Of a DNA stretch of 64,000 nucleotides, positions 5,190 to 54,669 are shown in pieces. The notes beneath the pieces are model-generated. The model saw only the letters and a program-made list of their open reading frames with translations. It was not told the origin of the DNA and ran no database searches. Both the position numbers and the translations under genes were made by a program. Origin of the DNA: Squalus acanthias (taxonomy: Eukaryota); the NCBI GenBank assembly GCA_030390025.1, contig CM059431.1, forward strand, positions 118,050,001 to 118,114,000. Reading direction: 5' to 3'. Each line of letters opens with the position of its first letter. The stretch's first letter is position 1.

Positions 5190-5725
5190 TATTCACAACT
5201 CACAGTGCAGTCTCCTCCACATTGGGGAAATCAATGAAGATTCTGCGAAAGCTTTGTCGCACAGTCTGTCCACAGTTGTGACCCCGAGCTCTCTCTCCAA
5301 CTGATTCCGTCTCTGACCTCTCTATCTTTGTCCTTCTACACTGTTCCGATGAAGCTCAATGCAAGCTCAAGGAACAGCGCCTTTTCTTTCTATTAGGCAT
5401 TTTGTAGCCTCGAGCCTTAACATTCACTTTTAATAATTTCATAAGAACATAAGAAATAGGAGCAAGAGTAGGCCATTCGGCCCTTCGAGCCTGTTCTGCC
5501 ATTCAATAAGATCATGGCTGATCATCTACCTCAACTCCAACTTCCCACATTTCAAACCTTAACTATAGATCCCACTTTCTGTATGGCATGGGATGTTGGT
5601 GATGTAAGGTGGGTATGTTGGCATATCTGGAGTGGAGAGAGGTGGAAGGGTTACACCTAAAATGTCAACTTGTCTCTCCACAGATGGTGCCTGAACTGCT
5701 GAGTATTTCCAGCATTTCCAGTTTT
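5190..5725 (+). mobile_element. Old Penelope-like GIY-YIG/3'-tail remnant interrupted by a CR1 3' end (5440-5560, minus)
   Basis: 'CTCCTCCACATTGGGGAAATCAA', 'GAAGCTCAATGCAAGCTCAAGGAACAGC' and the tail 'CTCTCCACAGATGGTGCCTGAACTGCTGAGTATTTCCAGC' match the array element. Confidence 0.7.
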
Positions 5726-12334: not shown

Positions 12335-12619
12335 GAAACAAATAATTTGCTGGAGCGGAACAGCTATAATTATGGGGGATTTTAACTACCATATTAACTG
12401 GACAAATCAAATTGGGCAGGGCAGCCTTGAGGAAGAGTTTATTGAGTGTCTTAGGGATGGATTTCTTGAGCAGTATGTAACTGATCCTACAAGGGGGCAA
12501 GCAACCTTGGACCTGGTCCTGTGTAATGAGTCAGGATTAATTAATAATGTCCTAGTTAAGGATCCCCTTGGAATGAGTGACCATAACATGATTGAATTCC
12601 ATATCCAATTAGAGGGTGA
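12335..12619 (+). mobile_element. CR1 ORF2 endonuclease segment (5' part of the LINE interrupted by the PLE array)
   Basis: MGDFN..., PTRGQATLDLVLCN and SDHNMIEF are APE motifs. The sequence continues at 23157 after the target-site duplication. Confidence 0.9.
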
Positions 12620-12622
12620 TCC

Positions 12623-13172
12623 CCTCCAGCATGATCCCACCACCAAACACATCTTCCCCTCACCTCCCCTTTCAGCATTCCGTAGGGACCGCTCCCTCCG
12701 CGACACCCTAGTCCACTCCTCTACCACCCCCAGCACCCCTTCCCCTTCGCCCGGCACCTTCCCGTGCACGCGCAGGAGATGCAACACATGCCCTTATACC
12801 TCCCCTCTTCCCACTGTCCAGGGCCCCAAACACCCCTTCCAGGTGAAACAGCGATTTACTTGTACTTCCTGCAATTTAGTATACTGTATTCGCTGCTCAC
12901 GATGTGGACTCCTCTACATTGGGGAGACCAAACGCAGATTGGGTGACCGCTTTGCGGAACACCTCCGTTCAGTCCGTAAGGGGGACCCCGAGCTCCCGGT
13001 GGCCTGTCACTTTAATTCACCGCTTCACTCCCACTCTGACCTCACCGTCCTCGGCCTATTACACTGTTCCACGGAAGCTTAGCGTAAGCTCGAGGAACAG
13101 CACCTCATCTTTCGTTTAGGCACGCTACAGCCCTCTGGACTCAATATCGAGTTCAACAATTTTAGATCATAA
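12623..13172 (+). pseudogene. 5'-truncated PLE ORF end (Cys-knuckle plus GIY-YIG) with premature stop
   Basis: Nearly identical to the C-terminus of the 971-aa ORFs, but with CAG>TAG at 13080-13082. Confidence 0.9.
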
Positions 13173-13451
13173 CCTCAGCTCCAATCACATTTATATTTTA
13201 TTTTATCCACCCTTTTATTTGTCCCCCCCCACCTTTTTTTTTCCCTCCTAGAAGCTGGCAGCTGTCCTTCATTCTGCCAGTGGATTTCACACTTCATTCA
13301 GCCTTAATCTGTCACATTAACACCACCTCTAGCCTTGCATATCTCTTAATGTCTCTTAATGTCTCTTCATCTCCCCCTTTGTTCCTTTATCCCCTCCCCC
13401 TTTTCCCAGCTTTACTCTGGCCTTAAATCTATTTGATTTCCGGCTCTTCCC

Positions 13452-13488
13452 AGTTCTGATGAAAGGTCATCGACCTGAAACGTTAACT
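13452..13488 (+). ncRNA. Minimal type-I hammerhead ribozyme (array copy 1)
   Basis: AGTT-CTGATGA-A-AGGTC(ATC)GACCT-GAAAC-GTT-AACT: stem I AGTT/AACT, stem II AGGTC/GACCT, palindromic AACGTT helix III; predicted cleavage after 13484. Confidence 0.85.
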
Positions 13489-16374
13489 CTCTTTCTCTCT
13501 CCACGGATGCTGCCTGGCCTGCTGAGTTTTTCCAGCGTTTTCTGTTGTTATATCGTATTTCCAGCATCCGCAGTATTTTGCTATCGTATTAGTGTTTGGT
13601 TCACTGCCACCTTTCTTCTTGGAATGCCTACCTTGAAGAAGTTCTGCTCTTCTCTTCGACGGGATTTCCGTTTGGCTCTTCAACCTTGTTCATCTTCATT
13701 GATTTCAGTTTCCCTTCTCGTGTTTGATCAGGTATCTGCCAAGACTCGGTTTCACAGCCACATTACTTTCCTCAGCAACTGTCTCCGGTTCCGACTTATC
13801 CCACGTGGATTCCAACTAAACTTCCACCCTTCGTGTTTCGGATCCACCCAGGATTACAAATATCTCCAAGATATTCATCGTTCCTCGAACTACTGCTCTC
13901 GCCGCATCTTGAGATCCACGCTCAACGCCATGCGGCGCCACATGAACACTCTCGACATCTCTCTTCAGCAGCACCGACGCACTCTATCTCAAAGCTGTCC
14001 GGGTCCACAGTTCCATTTCATCCTTAGACTCATCCGACGCTTCAACAAAAAACTTTTCTTCTTCCTTTCCGATGTCAAGGATCGCAAGCTTCAACAACTC
14101 TTGGACACTAAAGCCCCTCCGGAACCTTCTTCCCCTTCACTTTCCTCTGACCCCCCTTCTCCCAATCTCACCCCCTGCCGCGTTTTCACTATCCCCTCTG
14201 ACCTTCCCCTCTCTGACTCCGAACGATCAGTCCTCAGCAAAGGCCTGAGCTTCATCCCCTTACGCCCCCATCTCAATGAATTTCGAGCTCGGCACGATGC
14301 TGAGCTCTTTTTCCGCCGCCTCCGTCTCCGTGCCCACTTCTCTGGCCAGGAGTCTTCCCCCCGCACGGCTGACCCTTTCTCCCGCTTTCAGAATTCTCGT
14401 TCCACCTGGACCCCTCCCTCTGGCCTCTTACCCTCTCTTGATCTTTTCATTGCTAACTGCCGCCGTGACATCGGCCAGCTCAATTTCTCTGCTCCCCTCA
14501 CTCACTCCAACCTACCTCCCTCTGAACTTGCAGCACTCCATTCTCTCCGATCCAACCCTGACATTGTCATTAAACCTGCTGACAAGGGTGGCGCTGTTGT
14601 TGTTTGGCGAACCGACCTCTACCTAGCGGAAGTTGAACGCCAACTCTCTGACACCTCCTCCTACCTCCACCTGGACCATGACCCCACTACCGAACATCAA
14701 GCCACCGTGTCCAAGACTGTCACTGACCTCATCTCCTCTGGAGATCTTCCCCCCACGGCCGCCAACCTCATAGTTCCCCAACCCCGCACAGCCCGCTTCT
14801 ACCTCCTTCCCAAGATCCACAAACAGGACTGCCCTGGTAGACCCATCGTTTCAGCCTGTTCTTGCCCCACGGAACTTATCTCTTCCTATCTCGACTCTAT
14901 TTTTTCTCCCCTTGTCCAGTCTCTTCCCACCTACATCCGCGACTCTTCCGATGCCCTCCGCCATTTTAACAGTTTCCAGTTTCCCGGCCCCAACCGTCTC
15001 CTCTTCACTATGGACGTACAATCCCTCTACACCTCCATTCCCCACCAGGATGGCCTGAGGGCGCTCCGCTTCTTCCTTGAACAGTGGCCCAACCAGTCCC
15101 CATCCACCACCACCCTCCTCCGCCTGGCTGAACTTGTTCTCACATTGAACAACTTCTCCTTTGACTCTACCCATTTCCTCCAAATTAAAGGTGTTGCTAT
15201 GGGTACCCGCATGGGTCCTAGCTATGCCTGCCTTTTCGTGGGATATGTGGAACACTCTTTGTTCCAGTCCTACTCGGGTCCCCTCCCTCACCTCTTTTTC
15301 CGGTACATTGATGACTGTATCGGTGCCGTCTCCTGCTCTCGCCCTGAACTAGAACATTTCATTCACTATGCTTCCAATTTCCACCCTTCCCTCACCTTCA
15401 CATGGTCCATCTCCGACTCTTCCCTTCCCTTCCTCGACTTCTCCATCTCCATCTCTGGGGATAGGTTATTGACTAACATTCACTACAAGCCCACCGACTC
15501 CCACAGCTACCTGGACTACACTTCCTCCCACCCCGCCTCCTGTAAGGACTCTATTCCATTCTCCCAGTTTCTCCGTCTCCGCCGCATCTGCTCTGATGAT
15601 GCCACCTTCCATACCAGTGCTTCCGACATGTCTTCCTTTTTCCTCAACCGAGGATTCCCCTCTACCGTGGTCGACACGGCCCTCGACCGTGTCCGTTCTA
15701 TCTCCCGCACATCTGCCCTCACCCCTGCCCCTCCCTCCCGGAACCACGATAGGGTTCCCCTTGTCCTCACCTTTCACCCCACCAGCCTCCACATTCAACG
15801 GATCATCCTCCGCCATTTCCGCCACCTCCAGCGTGATCCCACCACCAAACACATCTTCCCCTCACCTCCCCTTTCAGCATTCCGTAGGGACCGCTCCCTC
15901 CGCGACACCCTAGTCCACTCCTCTACCACCCCCAGCACCCCTTCCCCTTCGCCCGGCACCTTCCCGTGCACGCGCAGGAGATGCAACACATGCCCTTATA
16001 CCTCCCCTCTTCCCACTGTCCAGGGCCCCAAACACCCCTTCCAGGTGAAACAGCGATTTACTTGTACTTCCTGCAATTTAGTATACTGTATTCGCTGCTC
16101 ACGATGTGGACTCCTCTACATTGGGGAGACCAAACGCAGATTGGGTGACCGCTTTGCGGAACACCTCCGTTCAGTCCGTAAGGGGGACCCCGAGCTCCCG
16201 GTGGCCTGTCACTTTAATTCACCGCTTCACTCCCACTCTGACCTCACCGTCCTCGGCCTATTACACTGTTCCACGGAAGCTCAGCGTAAGCTCGAGGAAC
16301 AGCACCTCATCTTTCGTTTAGGCACGCTACAGCCCTCTGGACTCAATATCGAGTTCAACAATTTTAGATCATAA
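13459..16374 (+). CDS. Penelope-like element polyprotein: reverse transcriptase, CxxxxCxxC knuckle and GIY-YIG endonuclease (true start probably downstream, e.g. 13624)
   Basis: Intact 971-aa ORF with KPADKG, FYLLPKIHK, GRPI, MDVQSLYTSI, GVAMG, RYIDD, LPFLD, CTRRRCNTC, VYCIRCSRCGLLYIGET and GLN motifs. Confidence 0.95.
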   Translation: MKGHRPETLTLFLSPRMLPGLLSFSSVFCCYIVFPASAVFCYRISVWFTATFLLGMPTLKKFCSSLRRDFRLALQPCSSSLISVSLLVFDQVSAKTRFHSHITFLSNCLRFRLIPRGFQLNFHPSCFGSTQDYKYLQDIHRSSNYCSRRILRSTLNAMRRHMNTLDISLQQHRRTLSQSCPGPQFHFILRLIRRFNKKLFFFLSDVKDRKLQQLLDTKAPPEPSSPSLSSDPPSPNLTPCRVFTIPSDLPLSDSERSVLSKGLSFIPLRPHLNEFRARHDAELFFRRLRLRAHFSGQESSPRTADPFSRFQNSRSTWTPPSGLLPSLDLFIANCRRDIGQLNFSAPLTHSNLPPSELAALHSLRSNPDIVIKPADKGGAVVVWRTDLYLAEVERQLSDTSSYLHLDHDPTTEHQATVSKTVTDLISSGDLPPTAANLIVPQPRTARFYLLPKIHKQDCPGRPIVSACSCPTELISSYLDSIFSPLVQSLPTYIRDSSDALRHFNSFQFPGPNRLLFTMDVQSLYTSIPHQDGLRALRFFLEQWPNQSPSTTTLLRLAELVLTLNNFSFDSTHFLQIKGVAMGTRMGPSYACLFVGYVEHSLFQSYSGPLPHLFFRYIDDCIGAVSCSRPELEHFIHYASNFHPSLTFTWSISDSSLPFLDFSISISGDRLLTNIHYKPTDSHSYLDYTSSHPASCKDSIPFSQFLRLRRICSDDATFHTSASDMSSFFLNRGFPSTVVDTALDRVRSISRTSALTPAPPSRNHDRVPLVLTFHPTSLHIQRIILRHFRHLQRDPTTKHIFPSPPLSAFRRDRSLRDTLVHSSTTPSTPSPSPGTFPCTRRRCNTCPYTSPLPTVQGPKHPFQVKQRFTCTSCNLVYCIRCSRCGLLYIGETKRRLGDRFAEHLRSVRKGDPELPVACHFNSPLHSHSDLTVLGLLHCSTEAQRKLEEQHLIFRLGTLQPSGLNIEFNNFRS

Positions 16375-16653
16375 CCTCAGCTCCAATCACATTTATATTT
16401 TATTTTATCCACCCTTTTATTTGTCCCCCCCCACCTTTTTTTTTCCCTCCTAGAAGCTGGCAGCTGTCCTTCATTCTGCCAGTGGATTTCACACTTCATT
16501 CAGCCTTAATCTGTCACATTAACACCACCTCTAGCCTTGCATATCTCTTAATGTCTCTTAATGTCTCTTCATCTCCCCCTTTGTTCCTTTATCCCCTCCC
16601 CCTTTTCCCAGCTTTACCCTGGCCTTAAATCTATTTGATTTCCGGCTCTTCCC

Positions 16654-16690
16654 AGTTCTGATGAAAGGTCATCGACCTGAAACGTTAACT
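16654..16690 (+). ncRNA. Minimal type-I hammerhead ribozyme (array copy 2)
   Basis: Identical to 13452-13488. Confidence 0.85.
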
Positions 16691-19576
16691 CTCTTTCTCT
16701 CTCCACGGATGCTGCCTGGCCTGCTGAGTTTTTCCAGCGTTTTCTGTTGTTATATCGTATTTCCAGCATCCGCAGTATTTTGCTATCGTATTAGTGTTTG
16801 GTTCACTGCCACCTTTCTTCTTGGAATGCCTACCTTGAAGAAGTTCTGCTCTTCTCTTCGACGGGATTTCCGTTTGGCTCTTCAACCTTGTTCATCTTCA
16901 TTGATTTCAGTTTCCCTTCTCGTGTTTGATCAGGTATCTGCCAAGACTCGGTTTCACAGCCACATTACTTTCCTCAGCAACTGTCTCCGGTTCCGACTTA
17001 TCCCACGTGGATTCCAACAAAACTTCCACCCTTCGTGTTTCGGATCCACCCAGGATTACAAATATCTCCAAGATATTCATCGTTCCTCGAACTACTGCTC
17101 TCGCCGCATCTTGAGATCCACGCTCAACGCCATGCGGCGCCACATGAACACTCTCGACATCTCTCTTCAGCAGCACCGACGCACTCTATCTCAAAGCTGT
17201 CCGGGTCCACAGTTCCATTTCATCCTTAGACTCATCCGACGCTTCAACAAAAAACTTTTCTTCTTCCTTTCCGATGTCAAGGATCGCAAGCTTCAACAAC
17301 TCTTGGACACTAAAGCCCCTCCGGAACCTTCTTCCCCTTCACTTTCCTCTGACCCCCCTTCTCCCAATCTCACCCCCTGCCGCGTTTTCACTATCCCCTC
17401 TGACCTTCCCCTCTCTGACTCCGAACGATCAGTCCTCAGCAAAGGCCTGAGCTTCATCCCCTTACGCCCCCATCTCAATGAATTTCGAGCTCGGCACGAT
17501 GCTGAGCTCTTTTTCCGCCGCCTCCGTCTCCGTGCCCACTTCTCTGGCCAGGAGTCTTCCCCCCGCACGGCTGACCCTTTCTCCCGCTTTCAGAATTCTC
17601 GTTCCACCTGGACCCCTCCCCCTGGCCTCTTACCCTCTCTTGATCTTTTCATTGCTAACTGCCGCCGTGACATCGGCCAGCTCAATTTCTCTGCTCCCCT
17701 CACTCACTCCAACCTACCTCCCTCTGAACTTGCAGCACTCCATTCTCTCCGATCCAACCCTGACATTGTCATTAAACCTGCTGACAAGGGTGGCGCTGTT
17801 GTTGTTTGGCGAACCGACCTCTACCTAGCGGAAGTTGAACGCCAACTCTCTGACACCTCCTCCTACCTCCACCTGGACCATGACCCCACTACCGAACATC
17901 AAGCCACCGTGTCCAAGACTGTCACTGACCTCATCTCCTCTGGAGATCTTCCCCCCACGGCCGCCAACCTCATAGTTCCCCAACCCCGCACAGCCCGCTT
18001 CTACCTCCTTCCCAAGATCCACAAACAGGACTGCCCCGGTAGACCCATCGTTTCAGCCTGTTCTTGCCCCACGGAACTTATCTCTTCCTATCTCGACTCT
18101 ATTTTTTCTCCCCTTGTCCAGTCTCTTCCCACCTACATCCGCGACTCTTCCGATGCCCTCCGCCATTTTAACAGTTTCCAGTTTCCCGGCCCCAACCGTC
18201 TCCTCTTCACTATGGACGTACAATCCCTCTACACCTCCATTCCCCACCAGGATGGCCTGAGGGCGCTCCGCTTCTTCCTTGAACAGAGGCCCAACCAGTC
18301 CCCATCCACCACCACCCTCCTCCGCCTGGCTGAACTTGTTCTCACATTGAACAACTTCTCCTTTGACTCTACCCATTTCCTCCAAATTAAAGGTGTTGCT
18401 ATGGGTACCCGCATGGGTCCTAGCTATGCCTGCCTTTTCGTGGGATATGTGGAACACTCTTTGTTCCAGTCCTACTCGGGTCCCCTCCCTCACCTCTTTT
18501 TCCGGTACATTGATGACTGTATCGGTGCCGTCTCCTGCTCTCGCCCTGAACTAGAACATTTCATTCACTATGCTTCCAATTTCCACCCTTCCCTCACCTT
18601 CACATGGTCCATCTCCGACTCTTCCCTTCCCTTCCTCGACTTCTCCATCTCCATCTCTGGGGATAGGTTATTGACTAACATTCACTACAAGCCCACCGAC
18701 TCCCACAGCTACCTGGACTACACTTCCTCCCACCCCGCCTCCTGTAAGGACTCTATTCCATTCTCCCAGTTTCTCCGTCTCCGCCGCATCTGCTCTGATG
18801 ATGCCACCTTCCATACCAGTGCTTCCGACATGTCTTCCTTTTTCCTCAACCGAGGATTCCCCTCTACCGTGGTCGACACGGCCCTCGACCGTGTCCGTTC
18901 TATCTCCCGCACATCTGCCCTCACCCCTGCCCCTCCCTCCCGGAACCACGATAGGGTTCCCCTTGTCCTCACCTTTCACCCCACCAGCCTCCACATTCAA
19001 CGGATCATCCTCCGCCATTTCCGCCACCTCCAGCGTGATCCCACCACCAAACACATCTTCCCCTCACCTCCCCTTTCAGCATTCCGTAGGGACCGCTCCC
19101 TCCGCGACACCCTAGTCCACTCCTCTACCACCCCCAGCACCCCTTCCCCTTCGCCCGGCACCTTCCCGTGCACGCGCAGGAGATGCAACACATGCCCTTA
19201 TACCTCCCCTCTTCCCACTGTCCAGGGCCCCAAACACCCCTTCCAGGTGAAACAGCGATTTACTTGTACTTCCTGCAATTTAGTATACTGTATTCGCTGC
19301 TCACGATGTGGACTCCTCTACATTGGGGAGACCAAACGCAGATTGGGTGACCGCTTTGCGGAACACCTCCGTTCAGTCCGTAAGGGGGACCCCGAGCTCC
19401 CGGTGGCCTGTCACTTTAATTCACCGCTTCACTCCCACTCTGACCTCACCGTCCTCGGCCTATTACACTGTTCCACGGAAGCTCAGCGTAAGCTCGAGGA
19501 ACAGCACCTCATCTTTCGTTTAGGCACGCTACAGCCCTCTGGACTCAATATCGAGTTCAACAATTTTAGATCATAA
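16661..19576 (+). CDS. Penelope-like RT/GIY-YIG polyprotein (unit 2)
   Basis: Intact 971-aa ORF; 3 amino-acid differences from unit 1 seen (L>Q, S>P, W>R). Confidence 0.95.
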   Translation: MKGHRPETLTLFLSPRMLPGLLSFSSVFCCYIVFPASAVFCYRISVWFTATFLLGMPTLKKFCSSLRRDFRLALQPCSSSLISVSLLVFDQVSAKTRFHSHITFLSNCLRFRLIPRGFQQNFHPSCFGSTQDYKYLQDIHRSSNYCSRRILRSTLNAMRRHMNTLDISLQQHRRTLSQSCPGPQFHFILRLIRRFNKKLFFFLSDVKDRKLQQLLDTKAPPEPSSPSLSSDPPSPNLTPCRVFTIPSDLPLSDSERSVLSKGLSFIPLRPHLNEFRARHDAELFFRRLRLRAHFSGQESSPRTADPFSRFQNSRSTWTPPPGLLPSLDLFIANCRRDIGQLNFSAPLTHSNLPPSELAALHSLRSNPDIVIKPADKGGAVVVWRTDLYLAEVERQLSDTSSYLHLDHDPTTEHQATVSKTVTDLISSGDLPPTAANLIVPQPRTARFYLLPKIHKQDCPGRPIVSACSCPTELISSYLDSIFSPLVQSLPTYIRDSSDALRHFNSFQFPGPNRLLFTMDVQSLYTSIPHQDGLRALRFFLEQRPNQSPSTTTLLRLAELVLTLNNFSFDSTHFLQIKGVAMGTRMGPSYACLFVGYVEHSLFQSYSGPLPHLFFRYIDDCIGAVSCSRPELEHFIHYASNFHPSLTFTWSISDSSLPFLDFSISISGDRLLTNIHYKPTDSHSYLDYTSSHPASCKDSIPFSQFLRLRRICSDDATFHTSASDMSSFFLNRGFPSTVVDTALDRVRSISRTSALTPAPPSRNHDRVPLVLTFHPTSLHIQRIILRHFRHLQRDPTTKHIFPSPPLSAFRRDRSLRDTLVHSSTTPSTPSPSPGTFPCTRRRCNTCPYTSPLPTVQGPKHPFQVKQRFTCTSCNLVYCIRCSRCGLLYIGETKRRLGDRFAEHLRSVRKGDPELPVACHFNSPLHSHSDLTVLGLLHCSTEAQRKLEEQHLIFRLGTLQPSGLNIEFNNFRS

Positions 19577-19855
19577 CCTCAGCTCCAATCACATTTATAT
19601 TTTATTTTATCCACCCTTTTATTTGTCCCCCCCCACCTTTTTTTTTCCCTCCTAGAAGCTGGCAGCTGTCCTTCATTCTGCCAGTGGATTTCACACTTCA
19701 TTCAGCCTTAATCTGTCACATTAACACCACCTCTAGCCTTGCATATCTCTTAATGTCTCTTAATGTCTCTTCATCTCCCCCTTTGTTCCTTTATCCCCTC
19801 CCCCTTTTCCCAGCTTTACCCTGGCCTTAAATCTATTTGATTTCCGGCTCTTCCC

Positions 19856-19892
19856 AGTTCTGATGAAAGGTCATCGACCTGAAACGTTAACT
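19856..19892 (+). ncRNA. Minimal type-I hammerhead ribozyme (array copy 3)
   Basis: Identical to 13452-13488. Confidence 0.85.
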
Positions 19893-22778
19893 CTCTTTCT
19901 CTCTCCACGGATGCTGCCTGGCCTGCTGAGTTTTTCCAGCGTTTTCTGTTGTTATATCGTATTTCCAGCATCCGCAGTATTTTGCTATCGTATTAGTGTT
20001 TGGTTCACTGCCACCTTTCTTCTTGGAATGCCTACCTTGAAGAAGTTCTGCTCTTCTCTTCGACGGGATTTCCGTTTGGCTCTTCAACCTTGTTCATCTT
20101 CATTGATTTCAGTTTCCCTTCTCGTGTTTGATCAGGTATCTGCCAAGACTCGGTTTCACAGCCACATTACTTTCCTCAGCAACTGTCTCCGGTTCCGACT
20201 TATCCCACGTGGATTCCAACAAAACTTCCACCCTTCGTGTTTCGGATCCACCCAGGATTACAAATATCTCCAAGATATTCATCGTTCCTCGAACTACTGC
20301 TCTCGCCGCATCTTGAGATCCACGCTCAACGCCATGCGGCGCCACATGAACACTCTCGACATCTCTCTTCAGCAGCACCGACGCACTCTATCTCAAAGCT
20401 GTCCGGGTCCACAGTTCCATTTCATCCTTAGACTCATCCGACGCTTCAACAAAAAACTTTTCTTCTTCCTTTCCGATGTCAAGGATCGCAAGCTTCAACA
20501 ACTCTTGGACACTAAAGCCCCTCCGGAACCTTCTTCCCCTTCACTTTCCTCTGACCCCCCTTCTCCCAATCTCACCCCCTGCCGCGTTTTCACTATCCCC
20601 TCTGACCTTCCCCTCTCTGACTCCGAACGATCAGTCCTCAGCAAAGGCCTGAGCTTCATCCCCTTACGCCCCCATCTCAATGAATTTCGAGCTCGGCACG
20701 ATGCTGAGCTCTTTTTCCGCCGCCTCCGTCTCCGTGCCCACTTCTCTGGCCAGGAGTCTTCCCCCCGCACGGCTGACCCTTTCTCCCGCTTTCAGAATTC
20801 TCGTTCCACCTGGACCCCTCCCCCTGGCCTCTTACCCTCTCTTGATCTTTTCATTGCTAACTGCCGCCGTGACATCGGCCAGCTCAATTTCTCTGCTCCC
20901 CTCACTCACTCCAACCTACCTCCCTCTGAACTTGCAGCACTCCATTCTCTCCGATCCAACCCTGACATTGTCATTAAACCTGCTGACAAGGGTGGCGCTG
21001 TTGTTGTTTGGCGAACCGACCTCTACCTAGCGGAAGTTGAACGCCAACTCTCTGACACCTCCTCCTACCTCCACCTGGACCATGACCCCACTACCGAACA
21101 TCAAGCCACCGTGTCCAAGACTGTCACTGACCTCATCTCCTCTGGAGATCTTCCCCCCACGGCCGCCAACCTCATAGTTCCCCAACCCCGCACAGCCCGC
21201 TTCTACCTCCTTCCCAAGATCCACAAACAGGACTGCCCTGGTAGACCCATCGTTTCAGCCTGTTCTTGCCCCACGGAACTTATCTCTTCCTATCTCGACT
21301 CTATTTTTTCTCCCCTTGTCCAGTCTCTTCCCACCTACATCCGCGACTCTTCCGATGCCCTCCGCCATTTTAACAGTTTCCAGTTTCCCGGCCCCAACCG
21401 TCTCCTCTTCACTATGGACGTACAATCCCTCTACACCTCCATTCCCCACCAGGATGGCCTGAGGGCGCTCCGCTTCTTCCTTGAACAGTGGCCCAACCAG
21501 TCCCCATCCACCACCACCCTCCTCCGCCTGGCTGAACTTGTTCTCACATTGAACAACTTCTCCTTTGACTCTACCCATTTCCTCCAAATTAAAGGTGTTG
21601 CTATGGGTACCCGCGTGGGTCCTAGCTATGTCTGCCTTTTCGTGGGATATGTGGAACACTCTTTGTTCCAGTCCTACTCGGGTCCCCTCCCTCACCTCTT
21701 TTTCCGGTACATTGATGACTGTATCGGTGCCGTCTCCTGCTCTCGCCCTGAACTAGAACATTTCATTCACTATGCTTCCAATTTCCACCCTTCCCATACC
21801 TTCACATGGTCCATCTCCGACTCTTCCCTTCCCTTCCTCGACTTCTCCATCTCCATCTCTGGGGATAGGTTATTGACTAACATTCACTACAAGCCCACCG
21901 ACTCCCACAGCTACCTGGACTACACTTCCTCCCACCCCGCCTCCTGTAAGGACTCTATTCCATTCTCCCAGTTTCTCCGTCTCCGCCGCATCTGCTCTGA
22001 TGATGCCACCTTCCATACCAGTGCTTCCGACATGTCTTCCTTTTTCCTCAACCGAGGATTCCCCTCTACCGTGGTCGACACGGCCCTCGACCGTGTCCGT
22101 TCTATCTCCCGCACATCTGCCCTCACCCCTGCCCCTCCCTCCCGGAACCACGATAGGGTTCCCCTTGTCCTCACCTTTCACCCCACCAGCCTCCACATTC
22201 AACGGATCATCCTCCGCCATTTCCGCCACCTCCAGCGTGATCCCACCACCAAACACATCTTCCCCTCACCTCCCCTTTCAGCATTCCGTAGGGACCGCTC
22301 CCTCCGCGACACCCTAGTCCACTCCTCTACCACCCCCAGCACCCCTTCCCCTTCGCCCGGCACCTTCCCGTGCACGCGCAGGAGATGCAACACATGCCCT
22401 TATACCTCCCCTCTTCCCACTGTCCAGGGCCCCAAACACCCCTTCCAGGTGAAACAGCGATTTACTTGTACTTCCTGCAATTTAGTATACTGTATTCGCT
22501 GCTCACGATGTGGACTCCTCTACATTGGGGAGACCAAACGCAGATTGGGTGACCGCTTTGCGGAACACCTCCGTTCAGTCCGTAAGGGGGACCCCGAGCT
22601 CCCGGTGGCCTGTCACTTTAATTCACCGCTTCACTCCCACTCTGACCTCACCGTCCTCGGCCTATTACACTGTTCCACAGAAGCTCAGCGTAAGCTCGAG
22701 GAACAGCACCTCATCTTTCGTTTAGGCACGCTACAGCCCTCTGGACTCAATATCGAGTTCAACAATTTCAGATCATAA
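19863..22778 (+). CDS. Penelope-like RT/GIY-YIG polyprotein (unit 3)
   Basis: Intact 971-aa ORF with private changes TRVGPSYVC and PSHTF. Confidence 0.95.
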   Translation: MKGHRPETLTLFLSPRMLPGLLSFSSVFCCYIVFPASAVFCYRISVWFTATFLLGMPTLKKFCSSLRRDFRLALQPCSSSLISVSLLVFDQVSAKTRFHSHITFLSNCLRFRLIPRGFQQNFHPSCFGSTQDYKYLQDIHRSSNYCSRRILRSTLNAMRRHMNTLDISLQQHRRTLSQSCPGPQFHFILRLIRRFNKKLFFFLSDVKDRKLQQLLDTKAPPEPSSPSLSSDPPSPNLTPCRVFTIPSDLPLSDSERSVLSKGLSFIPLRPHLNEFRARHDAELFFRRLRLRAHFSGQESSPRTADPFSRFQNSRSTWTPPPGLLPSLDLFIANCRRDIGQLNFSAPLTHSNLPPSELAALHSLRSNPDIVIKPADKGGAVVVWRTDLYLAEVERQLSDTSSYLHLDHDPTTEHQATVSKTVTDLISSGDLPPTAANLIVPQPRTARFYLLPKIHKQDCPGRPIVSACSCPTELISSYLDSIFSPLVQSLPTYIRDSSDALRHFNSFQFPGPNRLLFTMDVQSLYTSIPHQDGLRALRFFLEQWPNQSPSTTTLLRLAELVLTLNNFSFDSTHFLQIKGVAMGTRVGPSYVCLFVGYVEHSLFQSYSGPLPHLFFRYIDDCIGAVSCSRPELEHFIHYASNFHPSHTFTWSISDSSLPFLDFSISISGDRLLTNIHYKPTDSHSYLDYTSSHPASCKDSIPFSQFLRLRRICSDDATFHTSASDMSSFFLNRGFPSTVVDTALDRVRSISRTSALTPAPPSRNHDRVPLVLTFHPTSLHIQRIILRHFRHLQRDPTTKHIFPSPPLSAFRRDRSLRDTLVHSSTTPSTPSPSPGTFPCTRRRCNTCPYTSPLPTVQGPKHPFQVKQRFTCTSCNLVYCIRCSRCGLLYIGETKRRLGDRFAEHLRSVRKGDPELPVACHFNSPLHSHSDLTVLGLLHCSTEAQRKLEEQHLIFRLGTLQPSGLNIEFNNFRS

Positions 22779-23057
22779 CCTCAGCTCCAATCACATTTAT
22801 ATTTTATTTTATCCACCCTTTTATTTGTCCCCCCCCACCTTTTTTTTTCCCTCCTAGAAGCTGGCAGCTGTCCTTCATTCTGCCAGTGGATTTCACACTT
22901 CATTCAGCCTTAATCTGTCACATTAACACCACCTCTAGCCTTGCATATCTCTTAATGTCTCTTAATGTCTCTTCAACTCCCCCTTTGTTCCTTTATCCCC
23001 TCCCCCTTTTCCCAGCTTTACCCTGGCCTTAAATCTATTTGATTTCCGGCTCTTCCC

Positions 23058-23094
23058 GGTTCTGATGAAAGGTCATCGACCTGAAACGTTAACT
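23058..23094 (+). ncRNA. Minimal type-I hammerhead ribozyme (array copy 4, terminal)
   Basis: GGTT-CTGATGAAAGGTCATCGACCTGAAACGTT-AACT; the A>G change in stem I leaves a G-U pair. Confidence 0.83.
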
Positions 23095-23156
23095 CTCTTT
23101 CTCTCTCCACGGATGCTGCCTGGCCTGCTGAGTTTTTCCAGCGTTTTCTGTTGTTA

Positions 23157-25509
23157 TAGAGGGTGAGAAGGTTGCTTCTCAAACAAGCATACTGAGCTTG
23201 AATAAAGGAGACTATGATGGTATGAGAGCAGAATTGATTAAAGTGGACTGGGAAAATAGATTAAAGGGTAAGACGGTACATGAGCAGTGGTGTTCATTCA
23301 AGGAGTTATTTTACAACTTTCAAAATAAATATATTCCACTGAGGAAAAAAGAAATGACAGCCATCCATGGCTAAGTAAAGAAATTAAAGAAAGTCTCCAA
23401 CTAAAAACAAGAACATATAAGGTAGCCAAAGTTAGTGGGAGGATAGAGGATTGGGAAGTCTTCAAAAGACAACAAAAAGTAACAAAAGGATTGATTAAGA
23501 AAGGGAAAATAGACTATGAAAATAAATTAGCAAAAAATATAAAAACAGATAGCAAGAGTTTCTATAGTTATATTAAAAGAAAAAGGGTGGTTAAGGCAAA
23601 CGTAGGTCCATTAGAGGATGAGACCGGGAAATTAATGGTGGGAAACATGGAGATGGCAAAAATGCTGAACAAATATTTTGTTTCAGTCTTTACGGTATAG
23701 GACACTAAGAATATCCCAACACTGGACAAACAGGGGGCTCTAGTGGGGGAGGAGCTAAATACGATTAAAATCACTAAGGAATTGGTACTCAGTAAAATAA
23801 TGGGACTCAAGGCGGATAAATCCCCTGGACCTGATGGCTTACATCCTAGGGTCTTGAGGGAAGTGGCAGTAGGAATTGTGGATGCTTTGGTAATAATTTT
23901 CCAAAACTCCCTGAACTCAGCAAAGGTCCCGGCAGATTGAAAAACTGCTAATGTAACACCCTTATTGAAAAAGGGTTGTAGGCAGAAGGCTGGAAATTAT
24001 AGACCAGTTAGCCTAACATCTGTGGTGGGTAAAATTTTGGAGTCTATTATTAAGGAGACAGTAACGGAACATTTAGATAAACATAATTTAATAGGACAAA
24101 GTCAGCATGGCTTTATGAAGGGGAAGTCATGTCTGACAAATTTGCTCGAGTTCTTTGAGGACATAATGTACAGGGTGGATAAAGGGGAACCAGTGGATGT
24201 AGTGTATTTAGACTTCCAGAAGGCATTCGACAAGGTGCCACATAAAAGATTATTACTCAAGATAAAAAATCACTGGATTGGGGGTAATATTCTGGCATGG
24301 GTGGAGGATTGGTTATCTAACAGGAAGCAGAGAGTTGGGATAAATGGTTCATTCTCGGACTGGCAACCAGTAGCCAGTGGTGTTCCGCAGGGGTCGGTGC
24401 TGGGTCCCCAACTCTTTACAATCTATATAAACGATTTGGAGGAGGGGACCGAGTTTAACATATCAAAGTTTGCAGATGATACAAAGATGGGAGGGAAAGT
24501 AGAGAGTGAGGAGGACATAAAAAACCTACAAGGGGATATAGACAGGTTGGGTGAGTGGGCAGAGATTTGGCAGATGCAATACAATATTGGAAAATGTGAG
24601 GTTATGCACTTTGGCAGGAAAAATCAGAGAGCAAGTTATTATCTTAATGGCGAGAAACTGGAAAGTACTGCAGTACAAAGGGATCTGGGGGTCTTGGTGC
24701 AAGAAAATCAAAAAGTTAGTATGCAGGTGCAGCAGGTGATCAAGAAAGCCAATGGAATGTTGGCTTTTATTGCTAGGGGGATAGAATATAAAAACAGGGA
24801 GGTATTGCTGCAGTTGTATAGGGTATTGGTGAGACCGCACCTGGAATACTGCATACAGTTTTGGTGTCCATACTTAAGAAAAGACATACTTGCTCTCGAG
24901 GCAGTACAAAGAAGGTTCACTCAGTTCATTCTGGGGTTGAGGGGATGGACATACGACGAGAGGATAAGTAGATTGGGACTCTACTCATTGGAGTTCAGAA
25001 GAATGAGAGGCGATCTTATTGAAACATATAAGATTGTGAAGGGGCTTGATCGGGTGAACGCAGTGAGGATGTTCCCAAGGATGGGTGAAACTAGAACTAG
25101 GGGACATAATCTTAGAATAAGGGGCTGCTCTTTCAAAACTGAGATGAGGAGAAACTTTTTCACTCAGAGGGTAGTGGGTCTGTGGAATTTGCTACCCCAG
25201 GAAGCTGTGGAAGCTACTTCATTAAATAAATTTAAAACAGAAATAGGCAGTTTCCTAGAAGTAAAGGGAATTAGGGGTTACGGGGAGCGGGCTGGAAATT
25301 GGACATGAGTTTGAGTTCGGATCGGTCAAGGCCCTGTGGGTGGCGGAGCGGGCCCAGGGGCCGAGTGGCCTGGTCCTGCTCCTACTTCTTGTGTTCTTTA
25401 GAGTTGAGGTTGGATCAGATCAGCCATGATCTCATTGAATGGCGGAGCAGGCTCGAGGGGCCGATTGGTCTGCTCCTGCTCCTATTTCTTATGTTCTTAT
25501 GTTCTTATG
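23157..25509 (+). mobile_element. CR1 LINE ORF2 (RT) and 3' UTR, continuation of 12335-12619
   Basis: 447-aa RT ORF 23965-25308 (NYRPVSLTS, LDFQKAFDKV, GVPQGSVLGP, FADD) with upstream stops at ~23698 and ~23938; (TTCTTATG)n tail at ~25487-25509. Confidence 0.95.
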
Positions 25510-27409: not shown

Positions 27410-30169
27410 TGTCGCATCCTGAGTTCCACGCTCAACGCTATGAGCCGCCACATGCACTCTCTCGACCTCTCTCTTCAGCAGCATCGATTCACTCTATCCC
27501 AAAGCTGTCCTGGTCCACAGTTCCATTTCACCTTTCGCCTCATCCGGTGGTTTAACAAAAACTTTTTTTCTTCCTTTCAGGTGTCAAGGAACCTACTTCC
27601 CCTTCACTTTCCTCTGACCCCATCCCATCTTCCAATCTCACCCCCTGCCATGTTTTCATTATCCCCTCTGACCTTCCCCTCTTGGACCCTGAACGATCAG
27701 TCCTCAGCAAAGGCCTCAGCTTCATCCCCTTACACCCCCACCTCAATGAATTTCGAGCTCGGCACGATGCTGAGCTCTTTTACCATTGCCTTTGTCTCTG
27801 TGCCCACTTCTTTGGCCAGGAGACTTCCCTCCGCACAGTAGACCTTTTCTCGATTTCAGAATTCTCGTTCTACCTGGACCCCTCCCCCTGGCCTCTTACC
27901 CTCTCTAGAACTTTTCATTGCTAACTGCCGGCGTGACATCGGCCATCTCCAGTTCTCTGCTCCCCTCACTCACTCCAACCTACCTCCATCTGAACTTGCA
28001 GCACTCCATTCTCTCAGATCCATCTCCAACATTGTTATTAAACCTGCTGACAAGGGTGGCGCTGTTGTTGTTTGGCAAACCGACCGCTACCTTGCAGAGG
28101 CTGAACGCCAACTCTCTGACACCTACTCCTACCTCCCCCTTGACCATGACCCCACTACCGAACATCAAGCCAACATTTCCAAGACTGTCACTGACCTCAT
28201 TTCCTCTGGAGATCTTACCTCCACGGCCACCAACCTCATAGTCCCCAATCCCGCACAATCCGCTTCTACTCCTTCCCAAGATCCACAAACAGGACTGCCC
28301 TGGTAGACCCATCATTTCAGCCTGTTCTTGCCCCATGGAACTATTTTCTTCCTAGCTCAACTCTATTTTTTCTCTCCTTGTTCAGTTTCTTCCCACCTAC
28401 ATCCGTGACTCTTCCGACACCCTCCACCAATTTAACAGTTTCCTGTTTCCTTCCCCAACTGTCTCCTTTTCACCATGGGCATCCAATCCCTCTACACCTC
28501 TATCCCCTACCAGGACAGCCCCACTTCTTCCTTGAACAGAGGCCCAACCTGTCCCCCTCCACCACCACCCTCCTCTGCGTGGCTGAACTTGTTATCACGT
28601 TGAACAATTTCTCCTTTGACTCCACTCACTTCCTCCAAATAAAAGGTGTTGCTATGGGAACCTGCATGGGTCCTAGCTATGCCTGCTTTTTCGTAGGATA
28701 TGTGGAACATTCTTTGTTCCAGACCTACTCATGTCCTCTCCCTCACCTCTTTTTCCATTACATTGATGACTGTATCAGTGCCGTTTCCTGCTCTCGCCCT
28801 GAACTGGAAAATTTCATTCACTTTGCTTCCAATTTCCACGCTTCCCTCACCTTCACATGGTCCATCTTCGAATCTTCTCTTCCCTTCCTTGGCTTCTCTG
28901 TCTCCATTTCTGGGGATAGGCTATTGACAAACATCCACTATAAGCTCACTGACTCCCACAGCTACCTGGACTACACTTCTTCCCACTTCACTTCCTGTAA
29001 GGACTCTATTCTATTCTCCCAATTTCTCCATCTCCTTCCCATCTGTTCTGACAATGCTACTTTCTATACTAGTGCTTCCGATATGTCTTCCTTTTTCCTC
29101 AATCGAGGATTCCCCTCTACCATAGTTAACATGGACCTCGACTGTGTCCATTCCATTTCCCGCACTTCTGCTCTCACCCCTTCCCCTCCCTCCCAGAACC
29201 ACGCTAGGGTTCCCCTTGTCCTCACCTTGCATTCTACCAGCCTTCACATTCAACAGATCATCTCCACTATTTCCACCATCTCCAGCGTGATCACACCACC
29301 AAACACATCTTCCCCTCCCCTCCCCTTTCAGCATTCTGAAGGGACCGCTCCCTTCATGACACCCTGGTCCACTCCTCAGTCACCTCCATTACCCCCTCCC
29401 CTTTCCACAGCACCTTCCCGTGCAAGTACAGGAGATGCAACACCTGCCTTTTTACCTCCTCCCTTCCCACTGTCCAGAGCCCCAAACACTCCTTCCAGGT
29501 GAAACAGTGATTTACTTGTACTTCTTGCAATTTAGTATACTGTATTCGCTGCTCACGATGAGGTCTCCTCTACATTGGGGAGACCAAAGGCAGATTGGGT
29601 GTCCGCTTTGCAGAACACCTCCATTCAGTTTGCAAGTGTGACCTCGTGCTTCTGGTCACCTGTCACTTTAATTCTCCGCTCCACTCCCACTCTGACCTCT
29701 CTGTTCTCGGTCTCTTACACAGTTCCAATGAAGCTCAATGTAAGCTCAAGGAACAGCACCTCATCTTTCGATTAAGCAATTTACAGCCTTCTGGACTCAA
29801 CATTGAGTTCAACAATTTCAGACCATAATCTCTGCCCCTATTTTTTCAGATGGCTGCTGTTGATGATTTCCATTCACACCTCTTCTAGACCCATCTTTTG
29901 TTTCTTTACTTGTCCCATTACCATCTCCTTATGCTTTATACAAACTTTTGTCATTTAAACACTCCTGCCTTCCACCCTATCACAGACCTTCCCTTTAGTT
30001 CTTTCCTCCCTTCCCCACTTTCCCTGCCCCTGCACTTGCTTAAAATCTGTTACATCTCTAACTTTTCTCGTTCTGATGAAAGGTCATCGACCTGAAACGT
30101 TAACTCTGTTTCTCTCTCCACAGAGGCTGCCTGACCTGCTGAGTATTTCCAGCATTTTCTGTTTTTATT
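27410..30169 (+). mobile_element. Older, degenerate near-full-length Penelope-like element with hammerhead tail
   Basis: Frameshifted homolog of the 971-aa ORF. Hammerhead at ~30069-30105. Flanked by TTAATATTATGGTA (27396-27409) and TTAATGTTATGGTA (30170-30183). Confidence 0.93.
30069..30105 (+). ncRNA. Hammerhead ribozyme motif of the degenerate PLE
   Basis: GTT-CTGATGAAAGGTCATCGACCTGAAACGTT-AAC; the core is identical to the array copies. Confidence 0.78.
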
Positions 30170-38430: not shown

Positions 38431-39868
38431 GGGCCATATTTTGTGACCCCTACTGGTGCGTACGAGGTGTGTATGCGCCCGTAGGGGCTGCGCAAGTTCA
38501 GGATTTAGGCCAGCGAAGTGCATGCGCGAAAACCCAGAACTTGCGATCTGTCAAGAATCCTCTTGACAGATCCTCCACATCCCCGGGAGATGGGCCTCTG
38601 CGGGTGGAGAGTTGCGCTATTTGCACAACTTCCACCCGCTGAATGCCTGTCAAATTCTTACGCCTGGTAAAAGCAGGCATAAGGCCTGCTTTTACCAGCA
38701 TAAGAGTTTTAAAAAATAGAAAAATAACATTTTAGCACTCATTTATAAATTAAAAATACTCTTCAATAAGGTAAGTTTATTTTTAGCCTCGTAAAAACAT
38801 ACAGGCCCAGAAATTCCGTTCGCAGGCCTCCCGCGGGCGGAGGGCTGCGATTTGGAAAAATCTCCGCTTGGACCGGAGGGCTCCCGGGAGGCGCAGAGTT
38901 CCATTGCTAGGCCTCTTCAAACTGCCGGTGTGCAGGGCCCACGTATCCCAGAGGCGCAGGCAGTTCGCAGCGTCCCTGGGATCACGTGGGCCATGGGGAG
39001 CCAATCACAGCAGGGAATCTCCATTCATTGATTTGACAGGAAGACCTGTCAAATCTATGAATAGAGATCACCCCCAGAACACAGTAAAACTTCAAAACCT
39101 TTTTTTAAAAATCACATTTTTAAAATGACTATAAATTACATAAATTAACTATTTTAAACAAAAATTTAAATTTTTGAAAAGAGTAATTAAAGTTTTTAAC
39201 AGGGCTAAAAGTAAACTTACGTTTCTTTAAAGTATTTTAGCGCAAGAATTGTAAGTGGTTTCTGCGGGCGGAGGGTCTCAAAAAAACAGAACTACCACCC
39301 GCAGAGGACCTGCTCCAGCGCAGGCGTCCAATCTGTCAAAAGCTTTCTTGACAGATCGGAAATGCTGGTTTCCAGCGCATGCGCAGTGCATGCCTAAAAC
39401 CGGCATTTCCGTTGGCCCAATGGGTGAGTACACAGCGCGTACACACCCGTCGGGAATGGAATTTCTGCCTCATAATTTTTTTCAAAAAATTACATTTTTG
39501 TATAAAATATTTAATTAAATGGCATTTTAATTCATTTTAAATATGTAATTTAAAAAAAAACTATTTCATGTGTTGGTGTATTTTTTAAGTGATCTCCATT
39601 CATATTTATTGGAGTTCCGTACGTACGGAACTCCAATAAGTATGAATGGGGATTCCCTTCTTTTATTGGTTGGGCCGGGCCACATGATCCCAGGGGCGCC
39701 TACGAACCGCCTGCGTCCCTGGGATACGGGGACCTCTGCCTGCGCGGACCCAGAGAGGCCCAGGATCGCAAGCCCCCGTATCTCCCGGGCCACCAGGTAT
39801 ATTCGTAGAATTTTTGCAGGTCGAAGGCATCCGCCCCGCGGGACGCCTCCGTTCGCAAATGTAGGCCC
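38431..39868. mobile_element. Harbinger-type MITE containing a nested related MITE
   Basis: Termini GGGCCATATTTTG / GCAAATGTAGGCCC with a 3-bp AAT duplication (38428-38430, 39869-39871). Confidence 0.7.
38802..39471. mobile_element. Nested Harbinger-type MITE in inverted orientation
   Basis: Termini AGGCCCAGAAATTCC / GGAATTTCTGCCT, possible ATA duplication. Internal blocks are reverse complements of host-MITE blocks (e.g. ATCTGTCAA..TTGACAGATC). Confidence 0.65.
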
Positions 39869-41290: not shown

Positions 41291-43925
41291 ATGCTACATC
41301 AAATAGTGCCTTTATCTAATAGAACATTTTGGGGAACTGGGCACCTGATTTATTAATATACTCTGTTCCTTGCCCTGACTGTCTAAAAACAGAGACCAAA
41401 GGGATCTGCCAAAGGGAAAATGGGTATCGTGTCAGTGCTTTCTAATATGCATGTTCTGTACAGACTTATACAGGAAAAGAACATTTTATGGATTTAAAAT
41501 GCTAGTAAGAATATAAATTATTGAGCATTGTCTTGTATGCATTGAACTGTTGTGTGACAGTCCTTGGGAAAAGAATTGATGGCTGTTTCATGGGTGAAAG
41601 ATTATTTTTAAACTGTAGCCAGCTTGGTTCCTATAGTAACACCTTCTGTGATGGAGAAATAATAAAAGGGGTTCAGCAGTAAAGAAAAAGCTATCAGCAA
41701 CTGAGTCAAAAAATATAATTCCAATTAAAAATTGTTTTTGACTTTTATTATAGAAACAGTGTTTGGAAAGTCCAAATCTACATAACAATTTATCTTGTCA
41801 GCCTCATTCTCTTTACATGTGTCCTTCAGAATCTCTGCACAGAATGAGGGGAGATTACTTACTATTTTGCTGTGTCCTATGAAGCCTAAGAAAATGCTAA
41901 CAGGCATTACAAATGACAGTGTTTGTATCCATCTAAGAAATACTTGAATTCTATCAGCAGATTTTTGATTACTGTCTTTTTTTCTATTTGATATACATTC
42001 TGCGGTATTCGGGATGACACATTGTATAGATCAACAAGTCAGTTAGTGTCCATTTGTCTGTAATGTCATCTCTGAGTCATACCTCTCAAGTGTTACACAT
42101 TGTTTGGAGCACTCCACATTCCTGGTGAACATTTGGGTTGTCTACCCTCAACCTCTTGTACACTGATTACTCCACATCTTCTCCATTTTTTTTTTAAATG
42201 TTGCATCTTTAAGAGATGAAGGCAGAGATTATACTGCACATCTGGTCTGACACAGGTAGCTTAGAAAGTCATTGGCAGCTGGTAGTAAAGGAATTACACT
42301 GCAGGCTGCCTGGGGCTGCAAATCCTGCCCCTCCACCATGGGAAAGTCCAGAGCGTTACTCAGAGCTCAGTTCCCAGGCTGAAATGTTTTGAGATGGCAG
42401 GAACACTTTCTATTAATGAAACAAAAATAAAAGCATTGCTTCAGTTTATGAAGTTCTCAGGTGGTTCAACAGTGACCCTTTGAGCATTTTGTACACCTGG
42501 ATTGACACCGCACTGGGATCTGTGACTGACGTGAAATGAGGGCAAATAGAACCGTGACATTTTTGATGGAAAGGAGCTTGTGCACATATCTTTCATTACA
42601 TTTTATTATTCAAATTGTTTAAAAAGGTTTTGCTGAAGTGTCTGTAACAATAGAACACTTATCTTTTGCCTGCAATGGATGCATTTTATTTCAGAGTATT
42701 CATAAGCAACATAATAATTATTGCTGATTTGGATCCTCAGGAGAAATGGAAGAGCTGTTCTATATTTCTTTCCCCCATTACACTCAATAAGCTTTCAATT
42801 TCGGCAGCAGGAACTTCCCATCAGAAGAACAGGTAAAAGAAATTGCTGAGTCCTTGAATTATTCTGTTGACAAAGCCATTATATGGATCAATGAGTGGGT
42901 TAAGCCTATATGTCTGCAATACTGACGCTAAACTAGAGGCGCTTTAGTTCTTCCCGAGCTTAAAACTCTCTATCCTGGTCAGTTGAGAATTTACAGAACT
43001 CATTCCGTGAGAAGTATTTAGCCAAGAGAAAATGCAATGCCTTTATATCATCACTGCCATCAACTGTTCTGCCATCTGATTAGTCACTAAATACAGATAT
43101 TAAATGTTGCACAATGGATATCATTTAAACTTCATTACCTGTAACTCAGAATGCAGTTCTCAAGAGTGTCTACCTTTTCTGGACTTGGTGTACAAGGCTC
43201 CAATTACCTGTTTCAGCCTGAAACAAGGGGAACGATCTGAGATTGATAAATGTTTGTTAGGCAAAGGTATTAAGGGTTATGGAACCAAGACGGGTAGATG
43301 GAGATAAGATACAGATTAACCATGATCTAATTGAATTGTGCAGCAGGTTCGAGGGGCTGAATGGCCATTTCCTATTCCTTTGTTCCTAACTTGCTTCTCC
43401 TGATTTTTTGGCAGTGCCCTGGTTTAAGCCATTGTTTTTCAGGATGGCTTGGTAAGGACTTAGTAGGCAGCTAGCATTTCTAAAGTCATCCAGGTTCTCT
43501 AATCCACAACTTTTCTAGTTGTTGACTTTCCTTTTCATAGCGATACAAGCACTTCCCTGAGTGCACTGTCAAACTGTTTTGAAGAGTTCACCTCTGTATC
43601 TGCTCACAGCCAAAGCTTGTCTTCAGAGAATGCAAAAGCAAACACCTATTTGATTTCTGTACTGCAGTTTACAGCTGCCACTACGAAATGCTGTTCATTG
43701 TTAATCTTCTGGCACCCTTTCACAACTCTTGTTCATGTCATACAGAACTTTCCAGGAGAGAGCAGACCTTTAGCCCCCTTTAACACTGCAACTAGCTCAA
43801 AACCATTTTCTTTCTCCTTATTAAATCCCTTGGAGGCTGCACTTTGCTCCAGTCCCCTCCATACATATAGCAGAAAGACTAAGCTAAAGAATGAAGATTA
43901 TCTTAATAGCCAGAACAAGAAGTTC

Positions 43926-44572: not shown

Positions 44573-45240
44573 GGCTGCCTCTTTTTGCAACACCAGTGGG
44601 TTGGACCAGATTGTTGATTGGTCAACTTGGAGGACAAGGCACACCCAACAGTTTGTCTGCAATATGACTCTTGATCCAGTCTTACTAGTGAGCCTACAGA
44701 AAGTGGTAGAATAGTTAGCTTTGCAAAGATCCTCTGTTAACTAATATTCTGAATTTGCAATTATAGTTGCACTTGGCTAGTAAAATAAAAGACTTTATAC
44801 TCTAATTTGTGGGTTAGTTAATTCTTTGCAGTTTTATGTCTTTTTTTTCCTTTGGAAATATTCAGTTTAATGATTAAGATTTATCAGTAACACCATTATT
44901 TAAAAGTTGAATTTGGAATAAGTACAATACACCTATTCATAACAGTAGTGAAATCTAACCATATTTAGTGTAGTTGGTACATATCAACAATGTTGCATCT
45001 TAGATATAATTAAATTTAATTATAATACTACCAAATGGTCAAATTTTAGGGAAATGTGTAATGAGTAATATGATAATCTATAGAGGTTCATCAAGCAGTT
45101 GAAGAACTCACTCATTATTTTCTAATCAAATAATCCTTATCCTTTTATTTAAACTTCATAAACTGTTCCACTGCTCTACATTTTTGCCATTTGTTTGTTG
45201 CGGGTTATATTAGTATTGTCAAGCTAAAAATAAAACACTC

Positions 45241-54668: not shown

Positions 54669-54669
54669 A

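Follow-up and report, generated by a model that had tools for sequence, protein, structure and literature searches.

Two classes of 3′ end downstream of a predicted hammerhead in a shark Penelope-like element family

Within the window (the whole stretch of shark DNA that was analysed, 64 kb), the copies of a Penelope-like element (PLE) family that are bounded by target-site duplications (TSDs) end in two classes, +66 to +71 (four of five copies) and +102 (one of five), counted in nucleotides from the predicted cut of a hammerhead-like motif and lying 31–36 nt apart. The gap between the classes is the PLE "tail" known from other species, and the ends rediscover this tail, together with the start of reverse transcription inside the RNA, in a new family of apparently Neptune type. 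By analogy with a PLE of the anole lizard, both classes are probably accounted for by an element protein that would nick AT-rich DNA and start reverse transcription at two internal sites of a read-through RNA that is likely uncut.

The element family and its predicted hammerhead

The unit of the family is 3,202 nt long and carries one 971-codon ORF, which encodes a reverse transcriptase (RT), a CX4CxxC linker and, C-terminally, a GIY-YIG endonuclease (EN). Three copies of the ORF are open in the window:

19863–22778, + strand: 971-codon ORF with RT, CX4CxxC linker and GIY-YIG endonuclease
13459–16374, + strand: further open copy of the ORF
16661–19576, + strand: further open copy of the ORF

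When the 971-aa protein was searched with Pfam, RVT_1 (E 9.7e-5) and GIY-YIG (E 6e-4) were matched, both under the curated cut-offs, and the motifs DKG (375), GVAMG (578), YIDD (616) and YIGET (887) were present. Of 7,999 candidates scored, 2,206 were homologs with E ≤ 1e-20, the best named relatives over residues 280–780 being from the shark Chiloscyllium punctatum (70% and 66%). The linker that separates RT from EN (residues 837–845) fits the pattern CX2-5CxxC, which, according to the available text of PMC8557442, defines Neptune and is common to Nematis too; the element therefore appears to be Neptune-type, by a linker also found in Nematis. Membership of the Penelope/Poseidon clade, that of the anole element, was ruled out, as the shark element has this zinc-finger-like linker, and identity with a non-LTR retrozyme was ruled out because the unit is 3,202 nt long and coding rather than short and non-coding. 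A single RT/GIY-YIG ORF, a pLTR (pseudo-LTR) arrangement, 5′ truncation (in four copies besides the array), TSDs and a 30–40-bp tail, all characteristic of EN+ PLEs, were found. Protein scans of viral and prokaryotic contigs confirmed 0 of 12 and 0 of 44 stretches, respectively. One metagenome pattern scan returned no locus and the other a single one (L001), which was rejected as a 20-nt chance match inside unrelated DNA.

A hammerhead-like core is present in eight young copies within the window:

Predicted cuts, + strand (motif): after 1161, 13484, 16686, 19888, 23090 and 30101
Predicted cuts, − strand (motif): after 46790 and 56103
23058–23094, + strand: minimal type I hammerhead motif, the terminal one in the array; predicted cut after 23090

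The terminal motif consists of a 4-bp helix I, the core box, one extra A and a 5-bp helix II; a palindromic ACGU stands where helix III would be, and the triplet at the predicted cut is GUU. When seven copies were parsed, the core boxes, an extra base between 9 and 10.1 and a palindromic 15.2–16.2 were found in all seven, with a helix II of 5 bp and a helix I of 2–4 bp. The 10.1–11.1 pair was A-U in six copies and G-U in one, in place of the expected G10.1-C11.1. Rfam at E ≤ 1 returned no hammerhead match, only three weak miRNA matches; short palindromic hairpins at 4231–4278 and 39589–39654 had weak miRNA matches far under the gathering scores. The cut position used throughout is thus the one predicted from the motif. 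In all eight young copies, the sequence across the predicted cut is unchanged, with no base gained or lost, and the intactness of the core in all of them suggests that the hammerhead has a use. Minimal hammerheads are described as cleaving poorly in the available texts of PMC4209133 and bioRxiv 10.64898/2026.07.22.740005, the latter giving cleavage as absent in eight of nine Xenopus dimers. The first in-frame ATG of the ORF (19863–19865) falls within the hammerhead core. It is abolished by a T-to-C variant in the copies at 46.8 kb and 54.6 kb and in about half of the depth of sequencing run X1 (see below); translation may therefore truly begin at a later codon.

Insertion ends and target-site duplications

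An anchored TSD scan was run over eight separate insertions. Five of them had TSDs of 9–14 bp, and these end at +66, +66 to +68, +68, +70 to +71 and +102 from the predicted cut:

1133–1227, + strand: solo 95-nt copy, from the hammerhead core to +66; 9-bp TSD at 1124–1132 / 1228–1236
12620–23156, + strand: head-to-tail array of 928 nt plus three units of 3,202 nt; TSD at 12610–12619 / 23157–23166
23091–23156, + strand: the 66 nt kept beyond the predicted cut of the array, ending at the putative first start of reverse transcription
27410–30169, + strand: 5′-truncated copy, end at +68; TSD of 14 bp (one mismatch)
46719–48229, − strand: 5′-truncated copy ending at +71 (last element-like base +70); 12-bp TSD
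56001–57335, − strand: 5′-truncated copy ending at +102, with tail 56001–56036; 14-bp TSD
54574–54669, + strand: older short copy with decayed hammerhead, ending near +65; no significant TSD
43923–44572: fragment stopping at the ORF end, lacking the hammerhead; no significant TSD
5259–5725: relic; no significant TSD
19955–19990, + strand: counterpart of the tail within an internal unit (+67 to +102), lying between the end classes

The TSD of the array is 10 bp long, and its end at 23156 (+66) may be placed up to +68 given a 2-nt overlap. As a control for chance, 1,500 random flank pairs were drawn (those in array register being left out) and 56 flank pairs were mismatched; 0.3% of the former and one of the latter scored at least as high as the weakest of the five TSDs. 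Five ends inside 37 nt of a 3,202-nt unit correspond to a P of about 1e-7 under a uniform null. The five cut-to-end distances listed in the earlier note (∼66, 66–68, ∼68, ∼71 and ∼102 nt) all held up in the scan; its description of the ends as a range of 66–102 nt past the cut was right as to the distances, but the range is not continuous, since the ends fall into the two classes. An 8-bp "TSD" of the 54.6-kb copy was rejected, as 26% of random pairs reach its score and its right flank is part of another repeat. The old fragments 43923–44572 and 5259–5440 both stop where the ORF ends; the former has neither a TSD nor a continuation in the window, and the latter is broken there by another repeat. 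As to the surroundings, the flanks 12560–12619 and 23157–25308 make the array appear to sit within a LINE-like element, whose RT frame (23941–25308) matches RVT_1 of Pfam with an E of 1.4e-30. A tandem array of 24-nt units with subunits of 9 and 15 nt is present at 45212–45500.

The TSDs are AT-rich, target and template match over 0–2 nt at the junction, and U-rich runs precede both end classes. Such runs would suit linear transcripts with an inactive ribozyme that end ∼66 or 102 nt beyond it and serve, in the manner of LINEs, as templates for copying from the 3′ end. This is very unlikely: none of the five TSD-bounded ends carries an A-tail, and there is no poly(A) signal within 19560–20100. 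The bases at the end sites lie in the open frame of tandem units, so that termination there would prevent expression, and the position of the anole product stayed the same when the RNA was lengthened at its 3′ end (PMC11167929).

The junction was also followed in sequencing runs. Four of 21 runs, represented by contigs throughout, were aligned to 19535–20584; the results on loose ends refer to the 24 of 1,097 loose-end rows listed. The assembly may derive from the DNA run X1, and the two are not independent. At 19955, 154 contigs of X1 leave the element for flanks that are long (median 255 nt) and differ from one another (agreement 0.40), and this is the only position among the six X1 rows listed where the contigs continue behind the element into long unique flanks. 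X15 and X16, which are guessed to be RNA, have rows of seven to eight contigs each at 19986–19998. The breaks of X11 lie earlier (19940–19950), which probably reflects divergence. Placed on the same junction reference, the +68 and +70 copies from the window itself have their break at 19955 and the +102 copy at 19988–19994; the rows of X1, X15 and X16 thus match the two end classes. Falls in contig depth after 19954 and 19989 were discarded as evidence: the depth of contigs is no basis for ranking parts, and the reference departs from the family there. A rise in depth across the cut in X15 and X16 was set aside on the same depth grounds.

The earlier note had argued that the observed ends cannot come from a template which is cleaved at its final hammerhead and on which copying begins at the cut, and this stands. 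A variant is a cut linear monomer on which copying is primed at +66, runs to the cut 5′ end and jumps end to end onto the cut 3′ end. It can be considered extremely improbable: no base is added or lost at the cut in the eight young copies or in the indel rows listed (12 of 13), and no row at 19889 is among the 24 of 1,097 loose-end rows listed.

Contig joints of other kinds were observed in the same alignments. A go-back joint from 20130 to 19790 is common to X15 and X16 (two organisms) and implies a unit of ∼341–343 nt which, containing the hammerhead and both start sites, is a candidate non-autonomous retrozyme-like derivative. Single contigs of X1 join 19955 to 19739, 19955 to 19869 and 19995 to 19902, that is, a copy ending at a start site is directly followed by another 5′-truncated copy. 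These joints look as if priming had occurred twice or one copy had inserted at the end of another.

Templates for reverse transcription

The earlier note placed the start of copying at preferred sites that lie downstream of the ribozyme, which matches the published result for an anole PLE. Frangieh et al. 2024 (PMC11167929) purified the protein of the anole Poseidon element and found two neighboring sites within the RNA at which reverse transcription begins; the interval between the two starts is the 30–40-bp tail, and genomic ends coincide with both. The stated start lies 111–118 nt into the ORF, which places it 82–92 nt past the cut, the exact figure varying with the way of counting the cut, and we infer the position of the second start from the text of that paper. 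Hammerhead mutants left the insertion product unchanged in vitro, unprocessed RNA was called the dominant substrate, and no RNA-seq reads ended at the cut (PMC11167929). Internal priming is thus supported for the shark family by likeness, but it has already been published for the anole element, and the biochemical basis of the mechanism would come from another clade. Transferred to the shark element, the protein would bind the RNA where the next ORF begins, directly downstream of the hammerhead, nick AT-rich target DNA and prime at either of the two internal RNA sites. As in the anole element, the cDNA would run back through the intact ribozyme, the 3′ UTR and the ORF, and a variable stop would produce 5′ truncation; priming at the second site would leave the optional tail on the copy. 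Tandem arrays such as 12620–23156 could supply the RNA, in which a full unit would lie upstream of a complete binding site. An antisense template, as in the available text of PMC3846280, was set aside, since the anole work used sense RNA.

Downstream of an internal hammerhead, the following structure was predicted:

19908–19974, + strand: predicted stem-loop, outer stem at cut +21–28 / cut +78–85

The first end class (19954–19959 in this unit) sits in the predicted loop and the second 16–17 nt after the stem. The prediction is weakly supported: it has z values of −0.75 and −1.97, and none of its 19 pairs covaries among three near-identical sequences.

Priming on uncut read-through RNA leaves a gap. 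A copy that ends at +66 lacks the downstream sequence needed by the anole protein, so that linear copying alone leaves the regeneration of tails and of partial tandems unexplained. For this reason, a circular template keeps a place in the argument, unlikely as it is: two hammerheads would free a monomer, its ligation would yield a circle, and the same internal sites would prime copying that can exceed the unit length. Circles were put forward for PLEs in 2014 (PMC4209133) and also in PMC6765202, whose available text mentions uncleaved oligomers alongside circles; for related retrozymes, expression in circular form is described in the available text of PMC7229834. One step would account for seamless cut junctions, partial tandems and tail regeneration, and the window contains a 3.3-unit array under a single TSD. 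Against a circle stand the indifference of the anole product in vitro to ribozyme mutants (PMC11167929) and the A-U or G-U, rather than the usual G-C, at hammerhead positions 10.1–11.1. The array units, moreover, are mosaic, so that a circle would have to be supplemented by later recombination, by mixed templates or by mixing in the assembly.

Fifteen sites vary among the array units. The family letter is found in unit 2 only at unit position 267 (T in all X1 depth), in unit 3 only at 1535 (R in 34 of 40 homologs) and in unit 4 only at 2815 (C in four of four other copies). As one circular template predicts private changes only, these mutually incompatible shared alleles need extra events, namely, three reversions among ∼14 changes (P 0.003–0.03). 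The mosaicism can be explained by unequal crossing-over at a later time, by mixed templates or by mixing in the assembly, each sufficient by itself. The array was therefore rejected as proof of rolling-circle copying of one circle; it carries no information on the founding event and does not speak against a circle either. Unit 4 has three private changes at conserved RT residues.

Of the earlier note's conclusion that a circular or uncleaved template is required, the uncleaved part is favored by the published biochemistry, and the circle is reduced to one of at least three possible templates: uncut tandem read-through RNA, a circle, and a jump from the RNA 5′ end. Nor is a linear RNA ending ∼67 nt past the ribozyme needed to dispense with the circle, as had been assumed, because internal initiation on a longer read-through RNA suffices. 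Judging from the array, a re-ligated junction would have the same sequence as the head-to-tail genomic junction, so that sequencing of circRNA junctions, once proposed as a check, cannot decide.

The third template starts from 5′ ends at the hammerhead, immediately upstream of which lies the following feature:

19854–19860, + strand: pyrimidine run plus AG right before helix I, putative, readable as 3′ splice site or initiator-like

If transcription began at the first bases of the hammerhead, internal priming would produce a cap-proximal cDNA of 100–135 nt, which would either integrate alone or jump to the RNA 3′ end and be extended there into a full unit. Such a cDNA would resemble a retroviral strong-stop product, and the jump would use the ∼33-nt redundancy between start and cut left by ribozyme cleavage of the downstream copy. 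This reading as a whole is considered quite improbable. The 95-nt copy 1133–1227 does start at the hammerhead, and before 19856 and 19857, X1 has 133 and 155 contigs, respectively, whose flanks are long, rich in A and of low agreement, numbers similar to that at the main 3′ end (154). Contigs with unlike upstream flanks break at 19854–19860, where the initiator-like motif lies, and single contigs connect ORF positions back to 19854–19857. This motif fits the consensus patterns of both an initiator and a 3′ splice site. However, the reference is atypical upstream of the hammerhead, and breaks at 19854 or 19857 also occur in real copies whose upstream sequence is intact. Little weight attaches to the G that ends both loose consensus strings, as G was often the last letter in a simulation, after which a cap-derived G at the 5′ junctions was downgraded. 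There are nine other initiator-like matches in 540 nt, and a copy of this kind is seen just once among the five TSD-bounded ones. The AG may also be a splice acceptor, as the D. virilis intron ends at helix I; transcription there starts 46 nt before this 75-nt intron (available texts of PMC4209133 and PMC2377424). In the shark family, AG precedes helix I in five of the eight young copies, and the nearest donor-like site is 611 nt upstream, within the ORF. Taken together, 19854–19860 is a possible hot spot of 5′ ends, partly confounded by the reference. If the jump were true, the ribozyme, the tail and pseudo-LTR regeneration would be explained without a circle, and should the hammerhead start prove to be a real peak of 5′ ends, a strand-transfer step could be tested directly. 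No such proposal for PLEs was found in titles and the beginnings of abstracts; subscription papers or supplements may hold one.

Comparison with known systems

Tails of 34–37 bp are given for D. virilis Penelope (PMC2377424), of 31 bp for Pen2a of the rotifer Adineta vaga (PMC3846280) and of 30–40 bp for PLEs in general (PMC8557442), as far as the available texts go; in that of Schostak 2008, no mechanism for pLTR regeneration was obvious. The shark copies share with these the optional 31–36-nt 3′ extension, equal to the sequence that follows the pLTR in tandem, and differ in that the inverted pLTR of these accounts was not seen among them. Judged by the available part of PMC4209133, metazoan PLE minimal type I hammerheads have in common with the shark motif the core boxes, the extra base before helix II, the palindrome in place of helix III, the short helix I and the occurrence of one motif per terminal repeat. 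The shark motif deviates by A-U or G-U replacing G10.1-C11.1 and by the GUU triplet, and its activity is a prediction. Non-LTR retrozymes, as presented in the available texts of PMC7229834 and bioRxiv 10.64898/2026.07.22.740005, likewise have a type I hammerhead per tandem unit, long TSDs and a PLE origin; they are short non-coding repeats, for which circles have been shown in some animals, whereas the shark element is a coding unit of 3.2 kb.

No paper on the 3′ ends of the shark PLE family was found in the literature search. The signature of two-site internal priming is extended from a Poseidon element to an apparently Neptune-type family of a shark, which is a modest confirmation. With its intact, near-identical ORFs and many junctions, the family is practical for questions on the role of PLE hammerheads and on the regeneration of partial tandems.

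The closest counterpart is the anole element itself (PAc, Poseidon_Ac of Anolis carolinensis; PMC11167929). Both are tandem PLEs with an RT, a GIY-YIG endonuclease at the C terminus and a hammerhead overlapping the ORF start; both have two genomic 3′-end sites 30–40 nt apart past the cut, little match between target and template, and AT-rich targets. On the printed PAc template, an outer stem judged by eye begins ∼21 nt after the cut, as in the shark element, and the stated PAc start follows the outer stem by 11–18 nt, compared with 16–17 nt here. Relative to a predicted stem-loop, the sites thus occupy similar positions in the two elements, although their base composition is opposite, the PAc site being A/C-rich and the shark ends U-rich. 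The two elements differ further in clade and in that the upstream site dominates in the shark (four of five copies), where the genomic signature of two-site priming is what was seen, whereas the priming was assayed for PAc. The shark element would work like PAc, yet is no Poseidon.
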